A stretch of 64,000 bases of DNA from assembly GCA_000004695.1 (NCBI GenBank), contig CM000151.3, positions 1,344,001 through 1,408,000 on the forward strand, read 5' to 3'. Under the pieces are notes generated by a model, which ran no database searches, was not told where the DNA came from, and was given only the letters and a program-made list of their open reading frames with translations. Positions 1 through 23,288 of this stretch are shown piece by piece. A program made the translations under genes and the position numbers. This DNA comes from Dictyostelium discoideum. Lineage: Eukaryota. The first letter of the stretch is position 1; every line of letters begins with the position of its first letter.

Positions 1-2005
1 TTCAGGTATAGTAATAGTTGATAATTGATTTAATTGTAATTTTATTGCTTCAATCTCTGTTGAGAGAGAATTACTTTCATCTTGTAATGATTTAATAGTT
101 GATTTTAATTGATTAATAGTTTGACAATCCTCTCTAATTGAAGATAATAATTGTTGATTCTCTTGATTCTTTTGATTATTTATTTTATTTAACTCATTAA
201 TTTGTTCAGAATAATCATTTATTAAACAATTTAGTGAATCCTTTTCAGAGTTTATATTTACAATTGTATGATTTAAAGTTGTAATCTTTTCTTGAAATTT
301 ATTTAAACTTTCAGATTGATCTAATTTCATTTGTTCAATTTGATTCTCTTTCTCTTTTAGTTGATCTTGATGAGTTGAATTTAAATTCTCAATTATTGAA
401 TATAATGATTCAAGTTCTTTTTTATTAGTTGTTAATTTATCTTGATGATTTGAGATTAAAAGTATTGAGTTTTCAAGTTTAATCTTTAAATCATTGTTTT
501 CATTAGTGATTGTATTGATTTGGTCATTGGAATCCGATTGTTTATCATTTAATGATTGTAAATCTGAATTTAAATTATCAATTTCCTTTTGTTTATCAAT
601 GATTTCATTGATTCTTTGAGTTAATAATGATTGTTGATTTGAATTTCTTTCAATTTGATCATCTAATTTCTTTTTTAATTCATTAAAATCAAAAGAGAGT
701 TGTTGTTTTTCAATTTGATATTCATTTGAAATATTATTAAATTCTAAATTCAATTTATTATAATTTAATTTTGAAAGTGATAAATCATCTAATAACTTTG
801 AATAATTATTTGATTTAGTGTCAAGTTGTGATTTTAAATCTTTTAGATCTTTATCTTGTTCAGTGATTAAAATTTGATAATCATTATTCTCCTTTGAGAT
901 TTTATCAATCAATGATTTCGATTCGGTTCTTTCATTCTTTAATTTTTCATTTATTTCTTTATTCAATTGAGACACTGATTTCAGATTCTCTTGATATTCA
1001 GAGATTAACGATTGGTAACGTTCATTATCATCATCAGAGGTTGATTGTAAATCCGATACTTGGATTTGTAAATCCATAATTAAAATTTCAGATTCTTTAA
1101 GTTTCTCTTGCTCACTCTTTAGTTTATCACTTACAAATTCAAGTTTCTCCTCCAACTCTGTCATTATCAAAGTGGATGTTGATATCTCCTCGCTTTGGAT
1201 ATCAATGATTTGCTGATTCTTTTCATTATCTGCATTGAATTGATGTTGTAATTCTCTCAACTCTTTTTCATATTGCTGTTGTTTATCTCGTAATTGTTGT
1301 ATCATGATATCCTTATTTTCAATCTTACTCCTTTGATTGGACTCTTGCTCTTTGCTATCAGTTAATTGTTCTTGTAATTGTTGGATTTCAATCTCCATTT
1401 TCCCCATCTCCTTATTAGATTGCAATAAATATGATTTATTCTCTTTATTGGAATTCTCTAAATGCACTATCCTAACTTCTAAATTTGATTTATCACACCT
1501 TAATTTATCAGTTTCATTTATAAGTTTCTCTAATTTCTCTGTTTGTATTTCAATTTGTTTATTTGTTTTATCTTCAAATTCTCTCATCTCTTTTTGATGT
1601 TGTTTCTCCAAATTCCCTTTTTCAACTTTTAATTGATCAATTAATTCACAAACTTTTTGATGATTCGTTTTAGTTTGTTTTAATATTTCTTGTAATTTTT
1701 TAATTTCAATTTGACCATTATTAAATTTTTCTTCAACTAATTTTAACTAATAATAATAATAAAAAAAAATTAATAATTTTATTATTATATTATTATTATT
1801 ATTATTTTTTAAATATATATATATATATACATACTTCAGATAAAATTTTATTTTTTTCATTCTTTAATTCTGTTGCTGTTTTTTGAGTAACTTTTAAAAC
1901 ATCAGCTTGATTATCAAATTGTTGAGCTTTTTGTTTTATTCGTTTCTTTAAATCTTCATTTTCATCTTCAAGATGTTTTATCTTTTCATGTTGGTCTTTA
2001 TTCAT
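1..2005 (-). CDS. Long coiled-coil protein (myosin-tail/SMC-like heptad-rich), 5' part. Exon 1 is 1835..2005 (ATG at 2005). An 88-nt intron lies at 1747..1834. Exon 2 runs 1746..1 and continues beyond the window start.
   Basis: The minus-strand frame (codon start positions congruent to 1746 mod 3) was checked for stops over positions 1-360 and spot-checked elsewhere; it is open and encodes E/K/Q/L-rich heptads. Exon 1 encodes MNKDQHEKIKHLEDENEDLKK...ILSE. The donor is GTATGT and the acceptor TTAG, both phase 0. The rest of the frame was translated by eye only, not checked codon by codon. Confidence 0.7.
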
Positions 2006-2615
2006 CTATGTATGTATTTATTATTTATTTAATTAAAAAAAAAAAAAAAATGTTATATAATATAATTTTTAATTTTTTTTAATGGATAAATAATTTATTT
2101 GTTAAGGTATGTTTAAAATAATATAATAAACATTTTTTTTTTCATTTTTTTTTTTAATTTTTATTTTTTTTTATGGAAAACTAAACATAACAGCTTTTTT
2201 TTTTTTTGGATTTTTTGGCGCAAAAAATGTTTGTATTGTTTTTTTTTAAAAAAAAGATATTTTGGGGAAAATTGGAAACAAAAAAAATAAAAATATAAAT
2301 AAAAAATAATCGATCAAAATTTTTTCTAAAAATATATGTTTTAATGAAAATATGTTTTTTTTTTTTTTTTTTTTTTTATTGGGTAGTATTTATAACTTTC
2401 AATAAAGATATATAAGGTTCAATTTTTAATTTTGAGAAAGAATCTTTAAATAATTGTTTGTTTTCCTTTGATAATTCTTTATTGAAATAAAATTCTGATG
2501 CTATAATAATAAACAATTTTTCATTTGTTTGAATTTTTGATGCAAATTCAGATTCCCTATAAAAATTTAATAAAATTAGTAAAATTTTTTTTTTTTTTAT
2601 AAATTAAATAAATAA

Positions 2616-5600: not shown

Positions 5601-7149
5601 TTTTTTTAATTGTTTCAATTTGTAATTGAATTAATTTTTCAATATTATTTCCTTCTTCTTCTTCTTTTACTTTTTCTTTTTCTTTTTCTTTTTCTTCTTC
5701 TTCTTTTTCAATTATATTATTATTATTATTATTATTATTATTTGTTAATTCTTTTTCTTTTAATTTTTCAATTACATTATTATGAGTTGGTGTTATACCT
5801 TGATAAGCTGAAGATGGTGATAAATTTTTAATTAATTTTAAGAATAAAGATTGAACTGATTGATTTGTAGTTGATTTTACAAAATTTGACATGAAAATTT
5901 GATAAAGTTCTTGAATGATCTCTAAAGAATTTTGTGGACCATAAGTTTCAATTAAATTATTAATATTTAAATTTAAGATACGTTCCCCTGAAACTTGTAA
6001 ACTAATATCATCAGTTTGTAAGAAATTAACGATTAACAATTCTAAAGTCTCTCTATTTGCTGGTAAATAAGATAAAAGACGTAATAGTTTTTGTTTTTTT
6101 CTAAGATCCAATGAATTTGAAACTCTAGAGAATATTTTCACCAAATGTTGTGTAAATATTTCAATATATTGATTTTGATCAGAATTTGAACCACCTTTAA
6201 CTAGGAATTCAATCAACTTCTTTACAGTGGATTCATTAATTAATAAAACAATCTTATCTAAAAATGTTTCACTTAATTCAATATTTTGTGATTTCAATAC
6301 AACAATCGATTGACAATATAATAAAAATATGATATGATGAGTTAAAAAGTGCTCACAACCACAACTTTGCCAATTATTTGATAATGCATATTGTTTCCAA
6401 ACCAAATCTGCACCTTCGATAACTTGTTGATTTGGTAATCTACCTAATAACAATAATAGCTTAACAGCATGGATTGATGTACTTGTACCACCATATGATA
6501 ATAAACTTGTTGTTATCTCTTGAATGATTGTACCATTATCTAATGCCAATATACCTTTTAATGAATCCATAAACAAGTTAATCGTTGAGGAACTACCACC
6601 AACAGTTGGTGAAAGTAATAATGAAGATGATGGTTGTTTCATTAATGATGATCCCATTGCCATTGTTGTTACTGTTATTGTTGACGATGATGATGATGAC
6701 AATGGTGATACACTACCACTGCCAGTAGTAGTATTGGTAGCACCAAAATTTGGACTATTTGATAATGATTGTGCAGAAATATGTGGTACTAAATTCTTAT
6801 TGAAAAATATTGAACTATAATATAAAAGATGATTTATCAATTGAGTGAATAATACATTCTTTGGTTTATACAATGAAAATACTGATACAGCATTACGAAT
6901 TAATTTCAATAATAAAGTTGAAATGATTGCTGCACTTGGACCTGGTTGATGTTTATTATCATGATTCGATAAAAATCTTGATTGTCTTGCAGCTGAAATT
7001 CTAGCTTCTTCTGGTAATTTACAACCTGTTCTTAATAATACTAATAATGGTGGTAACCATCTTAATTCATATGCTTCTAAAATACTTTCACGTAATAATA
7101 ATATACGTTTTCTAATTAATGGATCACTTGGTGTTGTTGTGGTTGTATT

Positions 7150-7761: not shown

Positions 7762-10700
7762 TGATGAAATATTTGGTGTTGAATTTAATGATTGGCTTTT
7801 ATTTTGATTAGTTTGTTGTTGTTGTTGTGGTGGTGGTTGGAAAAATAATTTTTTAATATCATCAATACTAACTGAAGAATCTGGGAATAATTTTCTATAA
7901 ATAAACATTGAACCTAATAAATCATAACTATAAGATAATACTTGATTTGGTTTTGATAATAGACAATGAGTTTCTTTTAATTCTTCAATGAAATAAGTTG
8001 GGAAATGATTTTCTTTATCGAATAATGATAAGTCTAAACCAAATTTACTTAATTTACTAAGCATCAATAGGATAGCAATTTTCAATTCATGTGAATGTGT
8101 AGTTTGATATTCAATCATTGAGCCAATGATTAATGGTTCAAATAATTTGAAATTTAATTTTCTATCTTCATTGGAAATGATACGATTAATCTCTGAATTA
8201 CTATAACTATAATTAATATTATGACTTGATGGTACTTCATTGATGAAATCATAATGTTGTTTAAGATTTGGTGTACCAAAGGTTAACAATGATGAAAACA
8301 CTGATCTAGAATTTAAAAACATTTCATCATGTGAATTACTACTACTTGAATGTGATTCAATTGATCTTGGTTCATATTGTTTCAATGAGGATGAAGATGA
8401 ATTAATACCACCACTGCCACCACCACCACCGCCACCAGTACTAATGAAACCACCACCAATATTCAAATCTCTTGATTTTTGTGATAATGAACTAATTGAT
8501 ACAATTGGTGTTGGTTTCATAGTTACTAAAAATAATTCATTTATACATTTAATTACTGATACAGGTTCTTGTTCGAAATGAGTCGTTAAATAACCAATGA
8601 TCTCTTCTGTATAGGGTAATATAGTTTTACCAGCACATTTTAACATTACTGATAAAGTTTCAAAACATGCTTGTCTAAGTTGAGAAAATCTATCAATACC
8701 AAAAATTGTGATTGAATTAATACGAGCTGTTAAAAGTTTTGAATAAAGTTTGATATAATGTATCGAATGAGTGAAAGAACCTAAATGAGTTGGTGCCTTG
8801 AGTAGTGGTGAATTTACATGAATACCACTTGGATTTGATTTAACCTCTTTCAAAGGTGGTGTAGGTCTAAACTGAATGATATTAGTTGCAATATTGATAA
8901 TACGTACTATATGGCGCAATACATTATGACAATAGGTGCCAAGTACATTCTCAGCACCCCTACTAAGATAACCCAATATCTCAATGATATCAATATGAAC
9001 ATCGAAATCTGTTGCAACCCAAGTCAAACCAACCCTATCCAAAGCCAATGGTAAAATATCGCCAACAAATGATAACATTGGATTTGCTAAAACCGAAGAA
9101 AGTGTACGACACTGTTCTGGTGTATCGGGTGGGAATGAATAGGTTTTACAAATTAAATTTAAAGCACCATAACAACCACGTATCTTATCATCTGGATGTG
9201 GATTTGAAAGTTGATTAACCAATAAACCAATAACATGTGAAAGATTTGCAAATATCTTTCTCTTTCTTAATACAGTATTCTCATAATCTTGAACATCAAA
9301 TGTCTCTCTAACCTTACTAGATATACCCTTCATTGAATGACGTTCCAATGGTGCTGTGAATACAAGTTTTGGTATAACTCTAACCAATGATTTACCTGCA
9401 CTATTTCTAACTCTAAAATCATTATCACTTAATTGTTCAATTAAAAAATCTAAAACTTTTGATTGAATTGGTATTGCAACTGCGCCACCAGTTTCTGAAT
9501 TATTCTTATTATTATTACTATTATTGCTATTATTATTATTTTCATTAATTTTTATTGATGAAGTTGAAATTGATAAATTTGGACCATTTATAACGACATT
9601 CATTACATTTGATTTTTGTTGAATATTTTGTTCAAGATATTCAATTACAATATAGTCAATCATTGATAAAGTTTCTAGAATTTCCAATTTAACTAACCAA
9701 TAAGTTGAACTACTAACACAAAGTAAATGACGTAATGTTACCAATGCCCAATCAGAGAATTTACTTTGTGATAGAATTGGTAAACATTCACTAATACCTG
9801 TACAAGCTAATTTCGCAGTTATCGAACTTGAATCCATTAATGCACGTAATAAAAATATTAATAAAGTTGGAATTGATAGATTATCTTCTAGCAATGCTAT
9901 ATTGGTTGGATAGATTTGATTACTGGTTATATGATCGGTTTCAAGATAACCTCTAATTAAACAACCAATCATCAATGCTGTACCTCCTCTAAGTAATGGA
10001 TCACTATCATTTAAATAATATAAAAACTCTTCTTTAGGTTCTAAACTAAATGTATGATTTGATACACCTGTTGTACTATTAATTCCACTCATTGTTGATG
10101 ATGTTAAATTATGTTGTTGTTGTTGTTGTTGCTGTTGTTGTTGTTGTTGTTGTTGTTGCTGTTGTTGTTGAGTAATTGGTGTAAACAATTTAAAATTTAA
10201 ATCAGAAGGTGAAATATTTAATAAATAATCTCTACAAATATGATCTTCTGCTGATGTTACTGTATTTGAATCAATAGTTGAAGGTTGATGTTTAAAAAAT
10301 TCATCATTAAATAATTTTGGAAAGAATTTTACAGATTGTGCTAAACAATTTAAAACTACAGCTTTTAAACTAACTCTAATCGATGATTGTTGATTAAAAC
10401 ATAAATGTCTAAGTTGAGCAATCACTTCTCTAACCAATGGTTTTGGCCAACTATATTCATAAGGTCCAAATGTTACCAATAATTGTTGTAATAACTCTAA
10501 ACTTAATCCAACAATATTATGATCATATGGTTCACCATCAATTGGTACTTGAATATATTTTAATATAAAATGTACGAAAAATTGAATCTTTAATGAAAAT
10601 CCATCTAAAATTTTAATATCATTTGCTTTTTTTTTTTAAAAAAAAAAAAATAATTAGTATATTATGTAAAAAATAAATTAATAAATTAATAAATAAATTA

Positions 10701-17016: not shown

Positions 17017-17033
17017 ATGACAATTTCTTTGAA

Positions 17034-17098
<65 letters not shown>

Positions 17099-17610
17099 GT
17101 GAAGATGAAAAATTATTTTGGAAAGTTTTTCATAATAAATTTTTATTTTTTAAAATTATAAATAGTATAGAAGAATTAAAATTTGATTTTCCAAATATTT
17201 CAACCTATTATGATTTAAATATTAGAAAGAAATTTAAGAATATTAATGATTTAGGTTCAATGGCATTATATAAACAATATTCAATATTAAAAGATAAATT
17301 AAAACATAACGATTATATTCATTTAAGTCCAAGTTCAATAAGAGAATTTATAAGATATTGTGATGATAAATCAATAATCTCACAAGTTTATTCAAAATTT
17401 AAATTAGAGTTCAATTTACTAGTTAACCCAATTTCAATTGCATTTTCAAGTAATAATATTCAAGCTTTAGATTTATTCATTTTCAATTTTAATTTACAAA
17501 TTGATAAATCATCATTTCAAGATATTATCGAATCAAAAAATTCTCAATTACAAAAATATATTTTAAATTTAATAATTAATAATAATAATTCAAATAATAA
17601 TAATAATTCA

Positions 17611-17679
<69 letters not shown>

Positions 17680-20559
17680 TCAAATAAGATTTTAATTAAA
17701 TTACCAAAATTAAAAAGATTATTAAACTTATATTTTTGTGGTGAATCAATTGATAATGAAGTTTTGAAATTAATTATAAATTTATATAAAATTGATAGTT
17801 TAAAAGAATTAATTGATGAAAATGAAATTGAAAGTTTTGAAAAAATTAATATAAAAAAATTTATTGAAATAAATGATATTTTCATTCAAAAGGTTTTAGT
17901 AGATTTAAAAATTGTTGAAAAATCAAAAGAAACTTTTAATTTTGGTGGTGATGGTAGTGGTGGTGATTATTTAAATGATAAAACTATTGAAGAACTTTTA
18001 ATTATGATTGAAATTATTTATAAAATTGGTAAAGGATTAAGTGATTCTGATGTAAATAATTTAATGAATACAAAAATTATTAATAGGGCATCATCATCAT
18101 TGGAGAGTAAAGAGAGTTTTAAACAGTTAAAGAAATTAATAGTTTTAGAGAGTAATTCATATTATTTAGAATTCTTTGAAACTTATGGTGAACCTGTATT
18201 AAATCAAGGTTATAATTATTATACCAATTTTTATAATTATTCTTTTCAAACTTTTAATCCACAAGGACTTCAATCTTTAATTGATTCAGCATTTGATTAT
18301 ACTCATTGGATTTATCCAATTTCAAAAAAAGATGATCCTATTAATTTTAAGAAATTAATTAAAATAGTCTTAAATGATCAACAAAGAGTTGTTGATTTTT
18401 TTAAATTATTTTATAATCAATCTAAATCTAATAATTTTAAATTTTTAAAACTACAACAACAACCACCACCACCACAAGAAGGAGAAAAAGAAGAAACCAT
18501 TGAAATAAAATGTAGAAATATAAAAGAAATATTTGATATAGTGGTTTCTTTATTAAATAGAAATATATGGGAGCAGTTAATGAATATTAGAGGTTTTCCA
18601 ATATCATTACTAACTTCAATACCACAAAATATAAGTAAAAATAAAAGAAAGAAATTTTCATTTGAAGATTCAATTTTTTATATTGAAAAAATTATAAAAT
18701 CAATTGAAATCATTTCAATCACTCATAAAAGACAATTATCAATATTACCATTCAATTTTAAAACTACAAAACATATTGATTACTTTTTCAAAACTATTGA
18801 AATTTTCACTTTTAAATGTAAATATTTAGATTTCAATAATGATCAAGAATTAATTGATTATTTTTGTGATAATATTCCAATATCAGCTATACCACTTTTA
18901 TTTGATGATGATGATGATGATGATAATATAACTACCGACAGTCAAAATATTCTTAAACAAATCTTAATTAATAAACAATTTAAGTATTGGTTTAAATTAT
19001 GTAATATTTTAGAAATTAAAAAGTTTGAATCATTAATTTATAATTTAAGTTCAAAAAGAAATTGGATTAAAAAAGATATTGAAACTGAAAAAATATCACT
19101 TTTATTAAAGTTTTTATTTGAACAATCAGAATTTTCAAAATTTTTTAATAAAAATAAAAGTAATGGTTCTAGTAGTGGTAGTAGTACAGAAAATGATTTA
19201 AATGAATCAATTATTATTGAATTTTTTCAAGATGTTATTTTTCATTTAATTGATAGGGAAATTAAAATTTCACAACTTGATACATTAATTAATATTGATT
19301 TTAATTATCAACCATTTGTATCATTCCTATTTGCATTAACTTCAATTGGGTATGATTATTTTGAAATTTCATTCATAATATTAAATCAAATTCAAAATAA
19401 ATTTTCAATAATTTCAAATCAGTTAACGTCAATTGATATTTTTGAAAGAATATCAGAAGAAATTTATCAAGATGAAGATTATAATCAAGATATTTATGAT
19501 GAAGAACATTTAATTTCATCAATTGATATGTGTTGGTTAATAAATAGTTTCCTAATGATTATACCAAGTGATTTTTATAAAGCTTGCTCCTCTTTATTTT
19601 CAAGACTTTTCTTATTTCTTTCAAGATGTAAAGATATTAATTTGGGAATATTGGATTCTATTAGATTACTATTAGAGAATAAATCAATTGAATTAAATAT
19701 TGAACCAAAAAAATTAATTGATATTTATCTTTCAATAAAGTCAATTAAGTTATCAGAATATCAAAAAAATAGAACCATTAAAGAAGGAACAGTTGATTTT
19801 AACTTTAAACTTGATTTTATTAAAAATTCAAGCGTTGAAATACTATTGGAATTATTAATTAGTGATAATATAAATCAACTATATAATAATAGTGAAATAG
19901 TTGTACGATATTATTCTATCACTCAAGATTTAATTTATTTATTACAATTGAATGAAATCAATTTATATTATAGGGTTTTGGATTTACATTATTATTTTAT
20001 TGGTAAAAACAATGGTCGTTTAAATGAATCTGATATTAAATATATAGAATCTGCTATTTTAAAAAGCCTTCAACTTTCAATTAAACTATTTAGATCAGAA
20101 AGACAACTTGTTAGATTCATTGAAAATTGTAATATTACTATCGAAAATATACTATATCATTCTTTAATGAATAATAGATTGGATTTCATTAAGTTTTTAA
20201 ATGATAATTACCACCCAATTCAACCAATAAAATATACTTCAATATTTCTTATATTTTCTTCAAATCATTTGGATATTGCAAAGTATTTACTTTCTAATCT
20301 TAAAGATAAAATTCTTATTGAAAAAATTGAATGTAAAACTCTTTTCAATCTTTTATTTAGAGGTGGTTTTTTAGAAATGTTTCAACTTTTATTAGACCAC
20401 TATCCTAATCTTATTAGTTTAGATCAAGATTCTTTCAATTTTGATGAATTTATATCTTTTCAAATTTGTAAACCTGCTATATTATACTACTATAATAATT
20501 TACCAATTAAGTGTAAAGTTTTAAAAAAGGTACTAGAAGAGTCTATTTTAAAACAATAA
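17017..20559 (+). CDS. Orphan low-complexity protein of 1180 aa with no recognisable catalytic domain. The C-terminal third shows weak ankyrin-like helical repeats. It is a single exon.
   Basis: A continuous ATG-initiated ORF. It has a polyN run after Met, a second polyN at about 17585-17680, a polyD run, and the N/K/I/F-rich composition typical of Dictyostelium coding sequence. No family-diagnostic motif was recognised. Confidence 0.6.
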
Positions 20560-20689
20560 AAAATAAAGTTTAAATTGTTTCCTTTCAATGTAAAATTTTT
20601 ATTTTAATAATTTCTAAGTATTGTTTTTCTTTTTTTTTTTTTTTTTTTTCTTCCTTTTATTAATTTTTTTTAAAAGATATCCAGTATTT

Positions 20690-21480
20690 AAAGGAGATTA
20701 TGTTTGAAAGCGCTGATCCTGGAATTCAATAAACTCTGAAAGTTTATTTTCTAAAATTAATAATTTGTTTAAGGAATTCATTTAGGTCTTTAAATTTACT
20801 CGGATCTTTTGAAAGAGTTATTATAATTTTTTTTTTGTGGTTAATTTCAGAGGCTCTAATTTTTTCGAGTTGAGTTGATGCATTGATTGCGATTATAATG
20901 TAGTATAGTTCCTATTTGAATGTTTGCAATTAGTTTTATTCCTTCTATTATGAGTATTGGTGTGATAGAAATTGATTTTCGTCCCGGAATAGGCATCCTC
21001 AATTATATTTCCACTTTTCTCACCTATTAAGGATCTGTGTGTAGTAATTTTCTCTTTGTTAATAGGGAACCTCTTATATTGTTATTGTATAGAATTGTTC
21101 TTGCTATTGCTTCGATCACCAGTAAAAAGTTTTTTTTTTTTATAATTGATAAATCAATGTTTATCCATTAAAAAGTAATTGATAGTTTTATTTATAGATT
21201 TTAATTTTTTAAAAGTAAAGAGGTTATTCCTTTTTTACTTTGATTTTTCAAATATATGGAATTTTAATTTTAAAATGAATTTTAATAGAGTAGTTGTTAT
21301 TGTTATTATCAATTTTTAGATATCTACACTTATGTATTTTATTTGAACTCCAGAATCAGTTCTTCCCAACATTATATCCTTGCAGGTTAGTTTTCTTAAT
21401 TTAATTTTTAGTTAAAGGAAATCTTTTTGGTCTTTTGCTCGGTTCTTTTGAAATAGTAAATTAAAAAAAAAATAAAAATT
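20690..21480. mobile_element. ORF-less block of moderate GC content carrying internal direct repeats. It lies about 90 bp downstream (3') of the tRNA-Pro gene. It may be a retrotransposon fragment or fragments; a 3'-end fragment of a tRNA-gene-targeted TRE3-type non-LTR element is the family I would test first.
   Basis: The sequence differs sharply from the flanks (for example gcgctgatcctggaattcaataaactctgaaag and cgtcccggaataggcatcctc). Two diverged copies of a roughly 60-bp unit end in A/T runs: aaggaattcatttaggtctttaaatttactcggatcttttgaaagagttattataattttttttt at 20764-20838, and aaaggaaatctttttggtcttttgctcggttcttttgaaatagtaaattaaaaaaaaaa at 21415-21476. There is no ORF of 60 aa or more. 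Its position relative to the tRNA 3' end fits the TRE3 integration preference, which is established knowledge of that family. Confidence 0.35.
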
Positions 21481-21531
21481 ACTTTTATATTCTAGTTTAT
21501 AATTTTATATAAAATGCTAAACCTTGTTATT

Positions 21532-21543
21532 GGGAATCGAACC
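21532..21543 (-). promoter_or_regulatory. External B box (exB), an extra RNA polymerase III B-box consensus GGTTCGATTCCC, 30 bp downstream of the tRNA-Pro gene.
   Basis: The plus strand reads gggaatcgaacc, which is GGTTCGATTCCC on the tRNA strand and duplicates the intragenic B box GGTTCGATTCTCGG. It sits inside a short hairpin (cttgttatt...aataacaag) that does not fold into a full tRNA. ExB boxes about 30-40 bp downstream of Dictyostelium tRNA genes are established in the literature. Confidence 0.5.
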
Positions 21544-21572
21544 TGTGAACTTTGAAATAACAAGATAAAATT

Positions 21573-21643
21573 GGGGAGATCCGAGAATCGAACTCAGGAC
21601 GCTACCACCCAAAGGTAGCATTATACCACTTAACTAATCTCCC
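21573..21643 (-). tRNA. tRNA-Pro (anticodon UGG), 71 nt.
   Basis: Manual fold of the minus-strand sequence GGGAGATTAGTTAAGTGGTATAATGCTACCTTTGGGTGGTAGCGTCCTGAGTTCGATTCTCGGATCTCCCC. The 7-bp acceptor stem is GGGAGAT/ATCTCCC. The D arm is GTTA-AGTGGTA-TAAT. The anticodon stem is CTACC/GGTAG with loop TTTGGGT (U33, anticodon TGG). The T arm is CTGAG-TTCGATT-CTCGG. The discriminator is C. Confidence 0.9.
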
Positions 21644-21850
21644 TTTTTGATGAAATTGAAGATTTATAGTAAAAAAAATTCCAAAAGTATTATTTTATCA
21701 CTTTTAAAATATACTTAAGTGGTAAAATAGATTATTTGAGTGGTATAATCTCCCTTTTTGATCAAATTGAAGTTTTTTTAAAAATAATATCCCAATTTTT
21801 TCCTTTTTGAAAGAATGGAAGGTTTATTGAAAAAAAATATCCCAGTTTAC
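21634..21850. repeat. Tandem array immediately upstream of tRNA-Pro. There are three copies of a roughly 50-bp unit (CCTTTTTGAnnAAnTGnAAGnTTTnTnnAAAAAAAATnTCCC). The first nine nucleotides of the tRNA and its 5' flank are duplicated (21634-21665 resembles 21746-21777). An inverted partial tRNA D-arm copy (ttaagtggtaaaat / gagtggtataat) lies at 21706-21750.
   Basis: Direct comparison of taatctccctttttgatgaaattgaagatttatagtaaaaaaaattcc with taatctccctttttgatcaaattgaagtttttttaaaaataatatccc and cctttttgaaagaatggaaggtttattgaaaaaaaatatccc. The D-arm-like segments are in the opposite orientation to the gene. Confidence 0.6.
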
Positions 21851-22580
21851 TAATTCTCCTTGATTATTTTAAACTTTATTATATCATAAAATGGAATTTC
21901 ATATTCCTTACCTCCCAATACTACATTAATACGAAAATTACACTAAAAACTACAACAACAACAACTACAACAACAACTACAACAACAACTACAGAAACAA
22001 TCAATCAAAAAACATCTTCCTAATATTTTTAAAAATAAAAACTGTATAAAAAATTGAGGCCTTTAGAATTATAAACCCAAGGAGTGGTAATTAACCAATG
22101 AATTATTCATTTTAAAAAAAAAAAACTTTAAAAGAATCCTAATAATAAAAAAGCTATAACAAAACTAGGGCCTAATAGTTTTTAAAAACTCTATATGAGA
22201 ATCAACTTACAATTGCATTACCCAATCCAAAAAAAAAAATGAATGTATTAAATAAGTTAATAAAATCTTTTTGTATTTTTTATTTTTTTATTAAATATCA
22301 GGATAGAAATGATTTAAATTTATTTAATGAAAAATCAATTCTTTGTATATAAAAAAAAAAAAAAAAGATTTTTTAACTGAAAATGAGATCAAATTTTGAT
22401 CGGGTTACAAAACAATTTTCAAAGTATTTTAATTAAATTTTTTTTTTTTTTTTTTTTTTTTTCCTTTTTTTTTTTTTTTTTTTTAATCAGTTAAAAAAAA
22501 AAAAAAATCAACATTTTATTATTTTTTTTTCCAACTTTTTTTCATAATACAAATAATAATATAACAATAATTAATAACAA

Positions 22581-23288
22581 ATGGGGTCAGGAGAATCAAA
22601 AAACTTTGGTAATATTGCTCAACAATCAAGATTAGATCATGCAGATTTAACAGTATTATTAAAACAATTTAATGCAATTTCAAAGAATGGTGAAATTAAA
22701 AAAGATGATTTAAAGAAAATCATTGAAAAAAAGTATGGTAGTGATAGTTCTTTAACAGCAATTCTATATAATTTATTTGATCGTGATGGTGATAAAACTA
22801 TTAATTTCACAGAGTTTGCTTTAGCATATGGTTTTTTAGTTAATAAAACTTTAGACGATGTTGTCGATACAAGTTTTCATTGTATGGATTTAAATGGTGA
22901 TGGAAATATTAGTAAAGGTAAACAAAATAAAAAAATAAAAAATAAAAAATAAAAAAAAATAATAAATAATTTAATATTTATTTAATATTTATTTAATATT
23001 TATAAAGGTGAATTAAGAGCAGTAGTAATGATGAATAAGAAAATGGAGAAATATATTCAAAATGATAAAAAAGTACCATTAGATAAATTAACATTATTAC
23101 CAATTGAAGTTTCAAAAATTAATCAAGAAGCTGATGATTTATTCCTTCAATTAGATGTTAATAAAGATGGTGGTGTTTCAAAACAAGAATTTATTCAATT
23201 AGCTTCTTCAAGTCCTGAATTAAAAAAGAAATTAACTTCATATTTAGTTCGTGATGAAGCACTTGATTTCTTTGGTACCACAAAATAA
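22581..23288 (+). CDS. N-myristoylated EF-hand calcium-binding protein (calcineurin-B/CHP-like). Exon 1 is 22581..22917 and exon 2 is 23008..23288, giving about 205 aa.
   Basis: It starts MGSGESK (an MGxxxS myristoylation motif). EF-hand loops are [12 protein letters not shown], a loop ([12 protein letters not shown]) completed only after splicing (the donor GTAAAC follows AGTAAAG in phase 1, and the acceptor TATAAAG adds GT to finish the Gly codon), and [12 protein letters not shown]. The intron is 90 nt. Confidence 0.85.

Follow-up and report, generated by a model that had tools for sequence, protein, structure and literature searches.

A Dictyostelium discoideum tRNA-Pro(UGG) locus with an external B box, probable TRE3-type fragments downstream and duplicated copies of the tRNA 5′ end upstream

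The retroelement TRE5-A (DRE) is described from positions ~48 bp upstream of the tRNA genes of Dictyostelium discoideum. TRE3 elements, on the other side, insert 40–150 bp downstream in the orientation of the tRNA, with the internal or external B box as target (PMC5911963), and tandems of TRE elements at a single tRNA gene are known (PMC5006619, supplement); the number of tRNA genes given for AX4 is 418 (PMC5006619). In D. discoideum, 66% of tRNA genes are reported to be followed, at ~41 bp, by an external B box (ex-B), which keeps the core GTTCRAnYC of the published B-box consensus, GTCnnnnGTTCRAnYC, but not the GTC by which internal boxes are marked (PMC3159450). A later review places ex-B at ~80% of genes and names it as the target of TRE3 elements (PMC5911963).

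We compared with these systems a tRNA-Pro(UGG) locus that adjoins DDB_G0272130 on an AX4-type chromosome 2, using the whole 64-kb stretch of DNA around it (hereafter the window). The EF-hand gene that starts at 22581 encodes a product identical to that of D. discoideum AX4 DDB_G0272130, base composition is 75–85% A+T, and the coding regions contain poly-Asn and poly-Thr; an exact look-up of the open reading frames at 17017–20559 and 22581–22952 returned no record. A second D. discoideum assembly (GCA_054883475.1; L002) was 99.5% identical to the window over 20560–22580, and its printed sequence carried the same letter throughout 21413–21973. Since this second assembly agrees, the arrangement of the locus is real and not an assembly artefact. 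The comparison also drew on two sister-lineage assemblies, GCA_054859355.1 (L001) and GCA_054859385.1 (L010), and on the orthologous tRNA locus of D. cf. discoideum (L008). An alignment covered seven loci, which represent five nominal species: the window, a pair of sister-lineage assemblies that bear the names D. discoideum and D. cf. discoideum, two assemblies of D. citrinum, and one each of D. firmibasis and D. dimigraforme; the tRNA is inverted in two of the seven. The orthologous locus of D. purpureum lacks the tRNA and was of no use as an outgroup, and a metagenome scan with the tRNA-Pro sequence, run for other tRNA-Pro loci, gave zero matches.

The reading that we favor, at a probability of roughly 0.8, is that a functional tRNA-Pro(UGG) gene with a canonical ex-B is followed downstream by TRE3-type fragments and preceded upstream by duplications of its own 5′ end. 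The gene and its 3′ flank contain the following features.

21573–21643, minus strand: tRNA-Pro(UGG) gene (ARAGORN; Rfam tRNA, 57 bits)
21567–21570, minus strand: T4 run (AATTTTA), +3 to +6 past the tRNA, read from the sequence
21532–21543, minus strand: external B box GGTTCGATTCCC, 29 nt past the 3′ end of the tRNA
21523–21564, no strand assigned: 9-bp inverted repeat CTTGTTATT / AATAACAAG around ex-B, from a DNA fold

A preliminary description of this DNA had placed a tRNA-Pro(UGG) gene on the minus strand, an assignment borne out by both programs: ARAGORN reported it as the single tRNA of the whole window, and Rfam matched it over the full model length (57 bits, E = 5e-11), with no RNA family other than tRNA between 20000 and 23000. 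Its sequence was 100% identical in the seven orthologous or syntenic loci from the five nominal species. The gene shows all the hallmarks of a functional tRNA gene (cloverleaf, A and B boxes, Pol III terminator), and its internal B box, GTCCTGAGTTCGATTC, fits GTCnnnnGTTCRAnYC including the GTC. T-runs serve as terminators for Pol III, and the T4 run, with a T-run at its position in every aligned locus, is likely the terminator of this gene.

Past the T4 run and on the tRNA’s own strand, GGTTCGATTCCC follows the internal B box at 49 bp. Allowing one mismatch brings up no second match in the window (0.07 expected by chance). The perfect extra B box proposed ~30 bp 3′ of the tRNA is there, at 29 nt. 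The box includes GTTCGATTC, a fit to the conserved core GTTCRAnYC, and upstream of it the sequence reads AGTTCACAGGTTCGA, without GTC at −5 to −7. Across the seven loci and five nominal species, including the two loci with an inverted tRNA, the core GGTTCGA was unchanged and held the same position relative to the tRNA, while the remaining 3′ flank had diverged. Conservation of the core within a diverged flank is indirect evidence of function, and the box may act as a second binding site for TFIIIC. Judged by its sequence, GGTTCGATTCCC is the known ex-B element, common in Dictyostelium and no peculiarity of this locus: it resembles the described elements in core match, downstream location, orientation with the tRNA, absence of GTC and proximity to a zone of TRE3-type elements, and it differs in spacing, at 29 nt from the gene and 49 bp from the internal box against published averages of ~41 bp and ~100 bp.

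The hairpin in which this box had been described as embedded fared less well. A 9-bp stem does exist, with 21523–31 paired to 21556–64, but as DNA it is weak (dG −3.9 kcal/mol, z −2.2; 7/200 shuffles folded equally well), and it is not conserved, as no equivalent fold around ex-B was found in L001, L008, L003 or L006. We consider the hairpin probably incidental.

Farther downstream, the preliminary description had recognized a TE-like block of ~800 bp, which we resolved into the following parts.

21354–21509, minus strand: X1, the retroelement fragment nearest the tRNA, present in the AX4-type lineage only (BLAST against the L008 element)
21130–21353, minus strand: putative remainder of X1, which would comprise a 3′ UTR and a T12 run (21130–21141) as oligo(A) tail
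20851–21127, no strand assigned: part of the TE-like block without a match (z = −0.4 against the L008 element)
20678–20845, minus strand: X2, an older retroelement fragment common to L001 and L010 (tblastx against L008)
20628–20652, minus strand: T-rich run of ~25 nt with interspersed C, also in L001, a candidate oligo(A) tail for X2

The key to the block came from L008, where a degenerate, colinear open reading frame of 2.6 kb lies directly behind the tRNA and ex-B on the tRNA’s strand. It matches RVT_1 (E = 7e-17) and has a Cys/His stretch that reaches a zinc-finger model only below threshold (18 bits, cut-off 27.1), and a plus-strand T-run (5612–5640) closes the element. Both X1 and X2 are homologous to the 3′ region of this element and co-directional with the tRNA. 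X1 matched at 21380–21462 against L008 5881–5968 (72%, BLAST E = 5e-7; shuffle z = 9.2), and X2 matched L008 5823–5990 (48% over 56 aa, tblastx, 57 bits; DNA shuffle z = 14). The core in L008 lies ~265 nt past the last long piece of the reading frame and may be UTR, not coding sequence. X1, X2 and the L008 copy are 70–72% identical to one another, as against 90% between X2 and its ortholog in L001, and for this reason we take the three as independent insertions and X1 as no local duplicate of X2. L001 has no X1. Set against L010 and L001, the junction of X1 with host DNA falls at ~21509/21510, ~63 bp behind the tRNA, and that of the L008 element lies 51–132 bp from the tRNA. L001 and L010 carry, beside their ex-B, another short fragment of an L008-type element.

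How far the fragments extend beyond these cores is less certain. The distance from the X1 core to its T-run is ~237 bp, against ~240 bp in the L008 element, and the T-runs at 21130–21141 and 20628–20652 have the place and strand expected of oligo(A) tails, yet such runs are ubiquitous in this genome. The similarity of the putative X1 3′ UTR to that of L008 was not significant. A motif next to the T-run (T-run ... TATCCATTA) resembles L008 5238–5289 (z = 3.9); as an end motif common to the window, L008 and D. citrinum it was rejected, since the D. citrinum match was background (z = −0.2). The demonstrably element-derived part of the ~800-bp block comes to ~170 bp plus ~115 bp, and about half of it (20851–21127 and 21143–21353) had no match to the L008 element. 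Within 20851–21127 there was no open reading frame of at least 50 aa, Pfam match or protein homologue; six-frame translation of 20660–21500, made to look for coding potential, gave no match in Pfam; four joined minus-strand pieces of the block gave no match in a word-indexed homology search; and self-BLAST of 20560–22580 against the window returned homopolymer and microsatellite matches only. A search for target-site duplications of the downstream fragments found none.

By position, orientation and homology to an element with reverse transcriptase, these fragments would be of TRE3 type. They share with TRE3 the downstream, co-oriented placement, the distance of ~63 bp (within 40–150 bp) and the homology to an element with RT and Cys/His segments, and, as in the known tandems, two independent copies stand in a row with the younger nearer the gene. 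Unlike TRE3, they are short and degenerate, their oligo(A) tails are uncertain and half of the block is without a match; likeness to TRE3-A to -D was judged by published behavior and not by consensus sequences. The earlier suggestion that the locus is a hotspot of tRNA-targeted integration therefore holds on the downstream side, with two copies of a non-LTR 3′ region here and the RT element in L008. L008 has in addition taken up ~930 bp of foreign DNA upstream of its tRNA, which reinforces the picture of a hotspot.

The 5′ side of the gene has a different makeup, consisting of an array of repeats.

21635–21684, minus strand: unit 1, tRNA nt 1–9 plus the genuine 5′ leader of ~41–45 bp (repeat search; L001, L010)
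21685–21707, minus strand: direct, decayed pseudo-tRNA fragment (tRNA nt ~33–13), the start of duplicated unit 2 (L001, L010)
21708–21749, no strand assigned: insertion or rearrangement of ~42 bp, in the AX4-type lineage only
21746–21795, minus strand: unit 2, a copy of tRNA nt 1–9 plus leader, 82% identical to unit 1
21795–21844, minus strand: unit 3, an older copy of the leader, 70% identical to unit 1
21845–21875, minus strand: remnant of unit 4, TTTACTAATTCTCCTTGAT, a decayed copy of the junction between tRNA 5′ end and leader (L010)

Repeat search and shuffling upheld the three flank units of ~50 bp that had been described, the first with nine nucleotides of the tRNA. The best match between units covers 41/50 positions and that of unit 3 35/50, both above all 300 dinucleotide shuffles (maximum 33). 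The unit core has no other occurrence in the 64-kb window (0 expected) and is therefore not generic low-complexity sequence. Units 1 and 2 both open with TAATCTCCC, which is tRNA nt 9–1, and in AX4 their first 27–28 nt are almost identical. Units 1 and 3 are conserved in L001 and L010, and unit 2 is present in L001, L002 and L010. Unit 4 is clearest in L010, where TCAACTAATCTCATTTTTGATCA agrees with the true junction TTAACTAATCTCCCTTTTTGATGA at ~20/24 positions, counted by eye.

The nature of the array became apparent from the sister lineages. In L001, unit 2 is preceded by GGTATCATTTTACCACAACTTATCTCC, a direct, decayed copy of the first ~30 nt of the tRNA, and the fragment at 21685–21707 of the window aligns with GGTATCATTTTACCAC of that assembly. 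Unit 2 of L010 consists of GCATTATACCACTCAACTAATCTCCC plus leader, an almost intact direct copy of the 5′ half of the tRNA with 89% identity to window 21609–21674. The duplicated stretch has one limit in or near the anticodon loop (nt ~33) and its second limit around −42 to −47. Because L001 and L010 carry a direct 5′-half pseudo-tRNA, we read the array as local tandem duplications of the 5′ part of the tRNA together with ~41–45 bp of leader. No such array was found upstream of the tRNA in D. citrinum. L008 has lost it and retained the tRNA, the ~930 bp of foreign DNA beginning at about −15 in its place, and the DGLT-A primer-binding site TGGCGACATCGTC was absent from all loci compared.

The AX4-type lineage differs from its relatives at 21708–21749, a piece of ~42 bp that is absent from L001 (alignment columns 1191–1232). 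The polarity of this difference is read from a structural argument and from the two sister-lineage assemblies, as no outgroup has kept the array. An inverted partial copy of the D-arm had been proposed at ~21690–21750; inverted sequence is indeed present at 21712–21749, as two copies (21712–21728 and 21729–21749), but 21685–21703 is direct and not inverted. The segment 21729–21749 is 90% complementary to 21620–21640. Taken alone this inverted match of 19/21 is marginal, being reached by 10/200 shuffles (5%); the comparative data nevertheless argue that the inverted copy is real. Window 21731–21749 (ATTATTTGAGTGGTATAAT) agrees with the reverse complement of segment ATTATACCACTCAACTAAT in unit 2 of L010 at 18/19 positions, and it carries the same G that sets the L010 unit 2 copy apart from the real tRNA. 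Because of this reverse complementarity and the shared G, ATTATTTGAGTGGTATAAT appears to be an in-place inversion bounded by ATTA/TAAT. Next to it, 21691–21703 and 21717–21729 form a 12/13 palindrome of the direct fragment with an inverted copy, and a 21-bp tandem repeat accompanies the inverted segment and the palindrome. Three lineages have three structures at this spot, namely one direct copy, two direct copies, and two inverted copies beside one direct copy, which suggests that small template-switch or slippage events occurred repeatedly in a quasi-palindromic pseudo-tRNA. A mechanism known from bacteria and yeast is the switching of strands where short inverted repeats lie. The 19-nt segment between 4-nt inverted repeats (ATTA/TAAT), the nearby 12/13 palindrome and the 21-bp repeat fit this mechanism and resemble quasi-palindrome mutation and short tandem segmental duplication; unlike in described cases, the mechanism is read here from the end product alone, and more than one order of events would yield it.

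Could the flank repeats and the downstream block be AT-rich low-complexity intergenic DNA with similarities that arose by chance? The region is 75–85% A+T with many short matches in either orientation, some half of the block is without any match, and Pfam and protein searches gave zero matches. For the locus as a whole we nonetheless find this very improbable, as the direct repeats score above each of 300 shuffles, no other place in the 64 kb carries the unit core (0 expected), the cores of X1 and X2 reach z = 9–14 against the RT element, and the tblastx match of 57 bits over 56 aa involves non-trivial residues. Chance is refuted for the repeats and the two cores, and it may account for 20851–21127 and 21143–21353. 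An array under selection, in which the leader units would act as additional TFIIIB elements or upstream promoter elements, or the palindrome in the pseudo-tRNA as a regulatory hairpin, is in turn highly unlikely. Its persistence in three lineages (window/L002, L001 and L010) would suit such a role, as would the near identity of the first 27–28 nt of units 1 and 2 in AX4 and the presence in D. firmibasis, where the tRNA is inverted, of the leader motif GGGATATT(T)nAAAAAA..TTCA (score 40, above 300 shuffles with a maximum of 38). Against this, the farther a unit lies from the gene the more decayed it is (82%, 70%, finally a remnant), one and the same spot differs in structure among the three lineages, D. 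citrinum does without the array, L008 swapped it for foreign DNA while keeping the tRNA, and the pseudo-copies contain no B box.

The preliminary description had offered a footprint of TRE5 or, as an alternative, local recombination between flank repeats. In the former, an element would once have sat ~48 bp upstream of the tRNA and been lost, with the units and the inverted fragment as its scar. The likeness to TRE5-A is one of coordinate only: the junction of unit 1 with the next copy falls at about −42 to −47, the edge of the 40–54 bp TRE5 window, and the foreign DNA of L008 demonstrates that the 5′ side can be hit. Yet the sequence from 21644 to ~21875, including −42 to −106, is fully explained as repeated copies of leader and 5′ tRNA sequence. 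A TRE5 footprint would call for TRE5-derived sequence 44–54 bp upstream of the tRNA and opposite to it in orientation. No foreign segment was found there, neither element sequence nor an insertion of element size; this accounting was made from the tRNA and leader copies and not against a TRE5 consensus. What L001 and L010 show at the same place is an uncomplicated direct duplication with direct pseudo-tRNA, and the AX4-specific piece, said to lie ~48 bp upstream at the TRE5 distance, begins at about −65 and derives from the neighboring pseudo-tRNA (18/19 reverse complement). TRE5 target-site duplications measure roughly 12–16 bp, far shorter than units of 49–74 bp, and to our knowledge no excision pathway exists for non-LTR elements. 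A lost TRE5 insertion is thus extremely improbable, and local recombination between flank repeats fits the L001/L010 comparison better. We also considered that DNA may break again and again at the 5′ limit of the Pol III complex (the TFIIIB edge), in which case the array would record repeated breakage and repair without any element; this we hold to be unlikely. The causes could be abortive nicking by the TRE5 endonuclease or stalling of replication forks at the transcription complex, as opposed to random slippage.

Under our preferred reading, a functional gene with ex-B, TRE3-type fragments and 5′-end duplications, ex-B would be kept by selection as a second TFIIIC-binding site. The downstream patchwork would consist of 5′-truncated TRE3-type fragments left by successive integrations directed by the B box or ex-B, the newer X1 landing nearer the tRNA and the older X2 being pushed outward. 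Upstream, three decaying tandem duplications may have arisen through replication slippage or unequal exchange, with parts of the array possibly homogenized by gene conversion. Short template-switch (quasi-palindrome) events would then have altered, in the AX4-type lineage, the D-arm of the pseudo-tRNA in the first duplicate: a 19-nt segment would have been inverted in place, and a second inverted copy would form the palindrome with the direct copy that was left.

Nothing at this locus is new in kind, ex-B and TRE3 targeting being textbook features of Dictyostelium tRNA genes, and the main use of the finding is correct annotation. Should arrays of 5′-half pseudo-tRNAs at the TRE5 distance prove to occur genome-wide, for which one locus is insufficient, they would tie local genome instability to Pol III complexes or to nicking by TRE5. 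The locus serves as a comparative illustration of how an ex-B core is kept unchanged from species to species, loci with an inverted tRNA included, how retroelement fragments gather at one spot in different lineages, and how the 5′ junction of a tRNA gene has been duplicated and then shuffled.

We compared the orientation of the tRNA-Pro(UGG) gene beside the EF-hand gene DDB_G0272130 across species, and found that it is reversed in D. firmibasis and D. dimigraforme relative to the window, where it lies at 21573-21643 on the minus strand:

D. firmibasis (L006), 1598-1668, plus strand, tRNA-Pro(UGG)
D. dimigraforme (L007), 2313-2383, plus strand, tRNA-Pro(UGG)

The orthologous gene of D. purpureum has no tRNA beside it. 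In D. firmibasis the region of the external B box, which in the window follows the 3' end of the tRNA, is flipped together with the tRNA (90% identity to window 21537-21643), and the leader motif GGGATATT(T)nAAAAAA..TTCA has apparently been flipped as well. This arrangement suggests that leader, tRNA and external B box were inverted as one whole module.

In D. firmibasis, the DNA behind tRNA-Pro holds, at a distance of ~70 bp, a tandem pair of ~110-bp units that are richer in GC (L006 1740-1960). These units contain an A-box-like motif, TAGTGGTTC, and B-box-like motifs, GGTTCGAGCC and GGATCGAGTC, and may represent a SINE-like repeat of tRNA origin. Scans with ARAGORN and Rfam returned no call for them.

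Rearrangements were also found at the retroelement fragments behind the tRNA. To the left of the outer fragment in GCA_054859385.1 (L010), positions 1015-1611 are an inverted copy of D. cf. discoideum (L008) 19284-19832, a segment that in L008 is ~14 kb distant, in the region of a short-chain dehydrogenase gene; the breakpoint falls exactly at the end of the outer fragment. Within the inner fragment, 28 nt of the window (21354-21381) match the reverse complement of the corresponding L010 segment (1962-1989) at 26 of 28 positions, and the L010 segment runs co-directionally with the 2.6-kb RT-encoding element of L008. This difference is another small inversion in place.

On the other side of the orthologous tRNA in D. 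cf. discoideum, ~930 bp of unrelated DNA (L008 8397-9324) begin ~15 bp upstream of the gene and replace the entire duplicated-leader array. This insert carries A-rich runs on the plus strand at 8886-8925 and 9236-9280, and a search of it for a DGLT-A primer-binding site found none. The deposited ankyrin-like gene model of GCA_054883475.1 (L002 1-2450; 1233 aa) is stretched to position 2450 and so takes in the tRNA-Pro gene (2000-2070) as well as the retroelement debris; this extension probably reflects a mistake in the annotation.

At window 21937-21996 the AX4-type sequence carries a (CAA/CTA)n microsatellite and a further ~25 bp, both of which L001 lacks (GCA_054859355.1; columns 1413-1479 of its alignment with the window). 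The neighbouring Asn-rich protein (1180 aa; window 17017-20559) shows only 87% identity to protein P0001 (L001 10001-13447), and intergenic identity between L001, likewise labelled D. discoideum, and the window is ~80–85%. Together with GCA_054859385.1 and GCA_054859205.1, GCA_054859355.1 appears to represent a separate lineage or a cryptic species.
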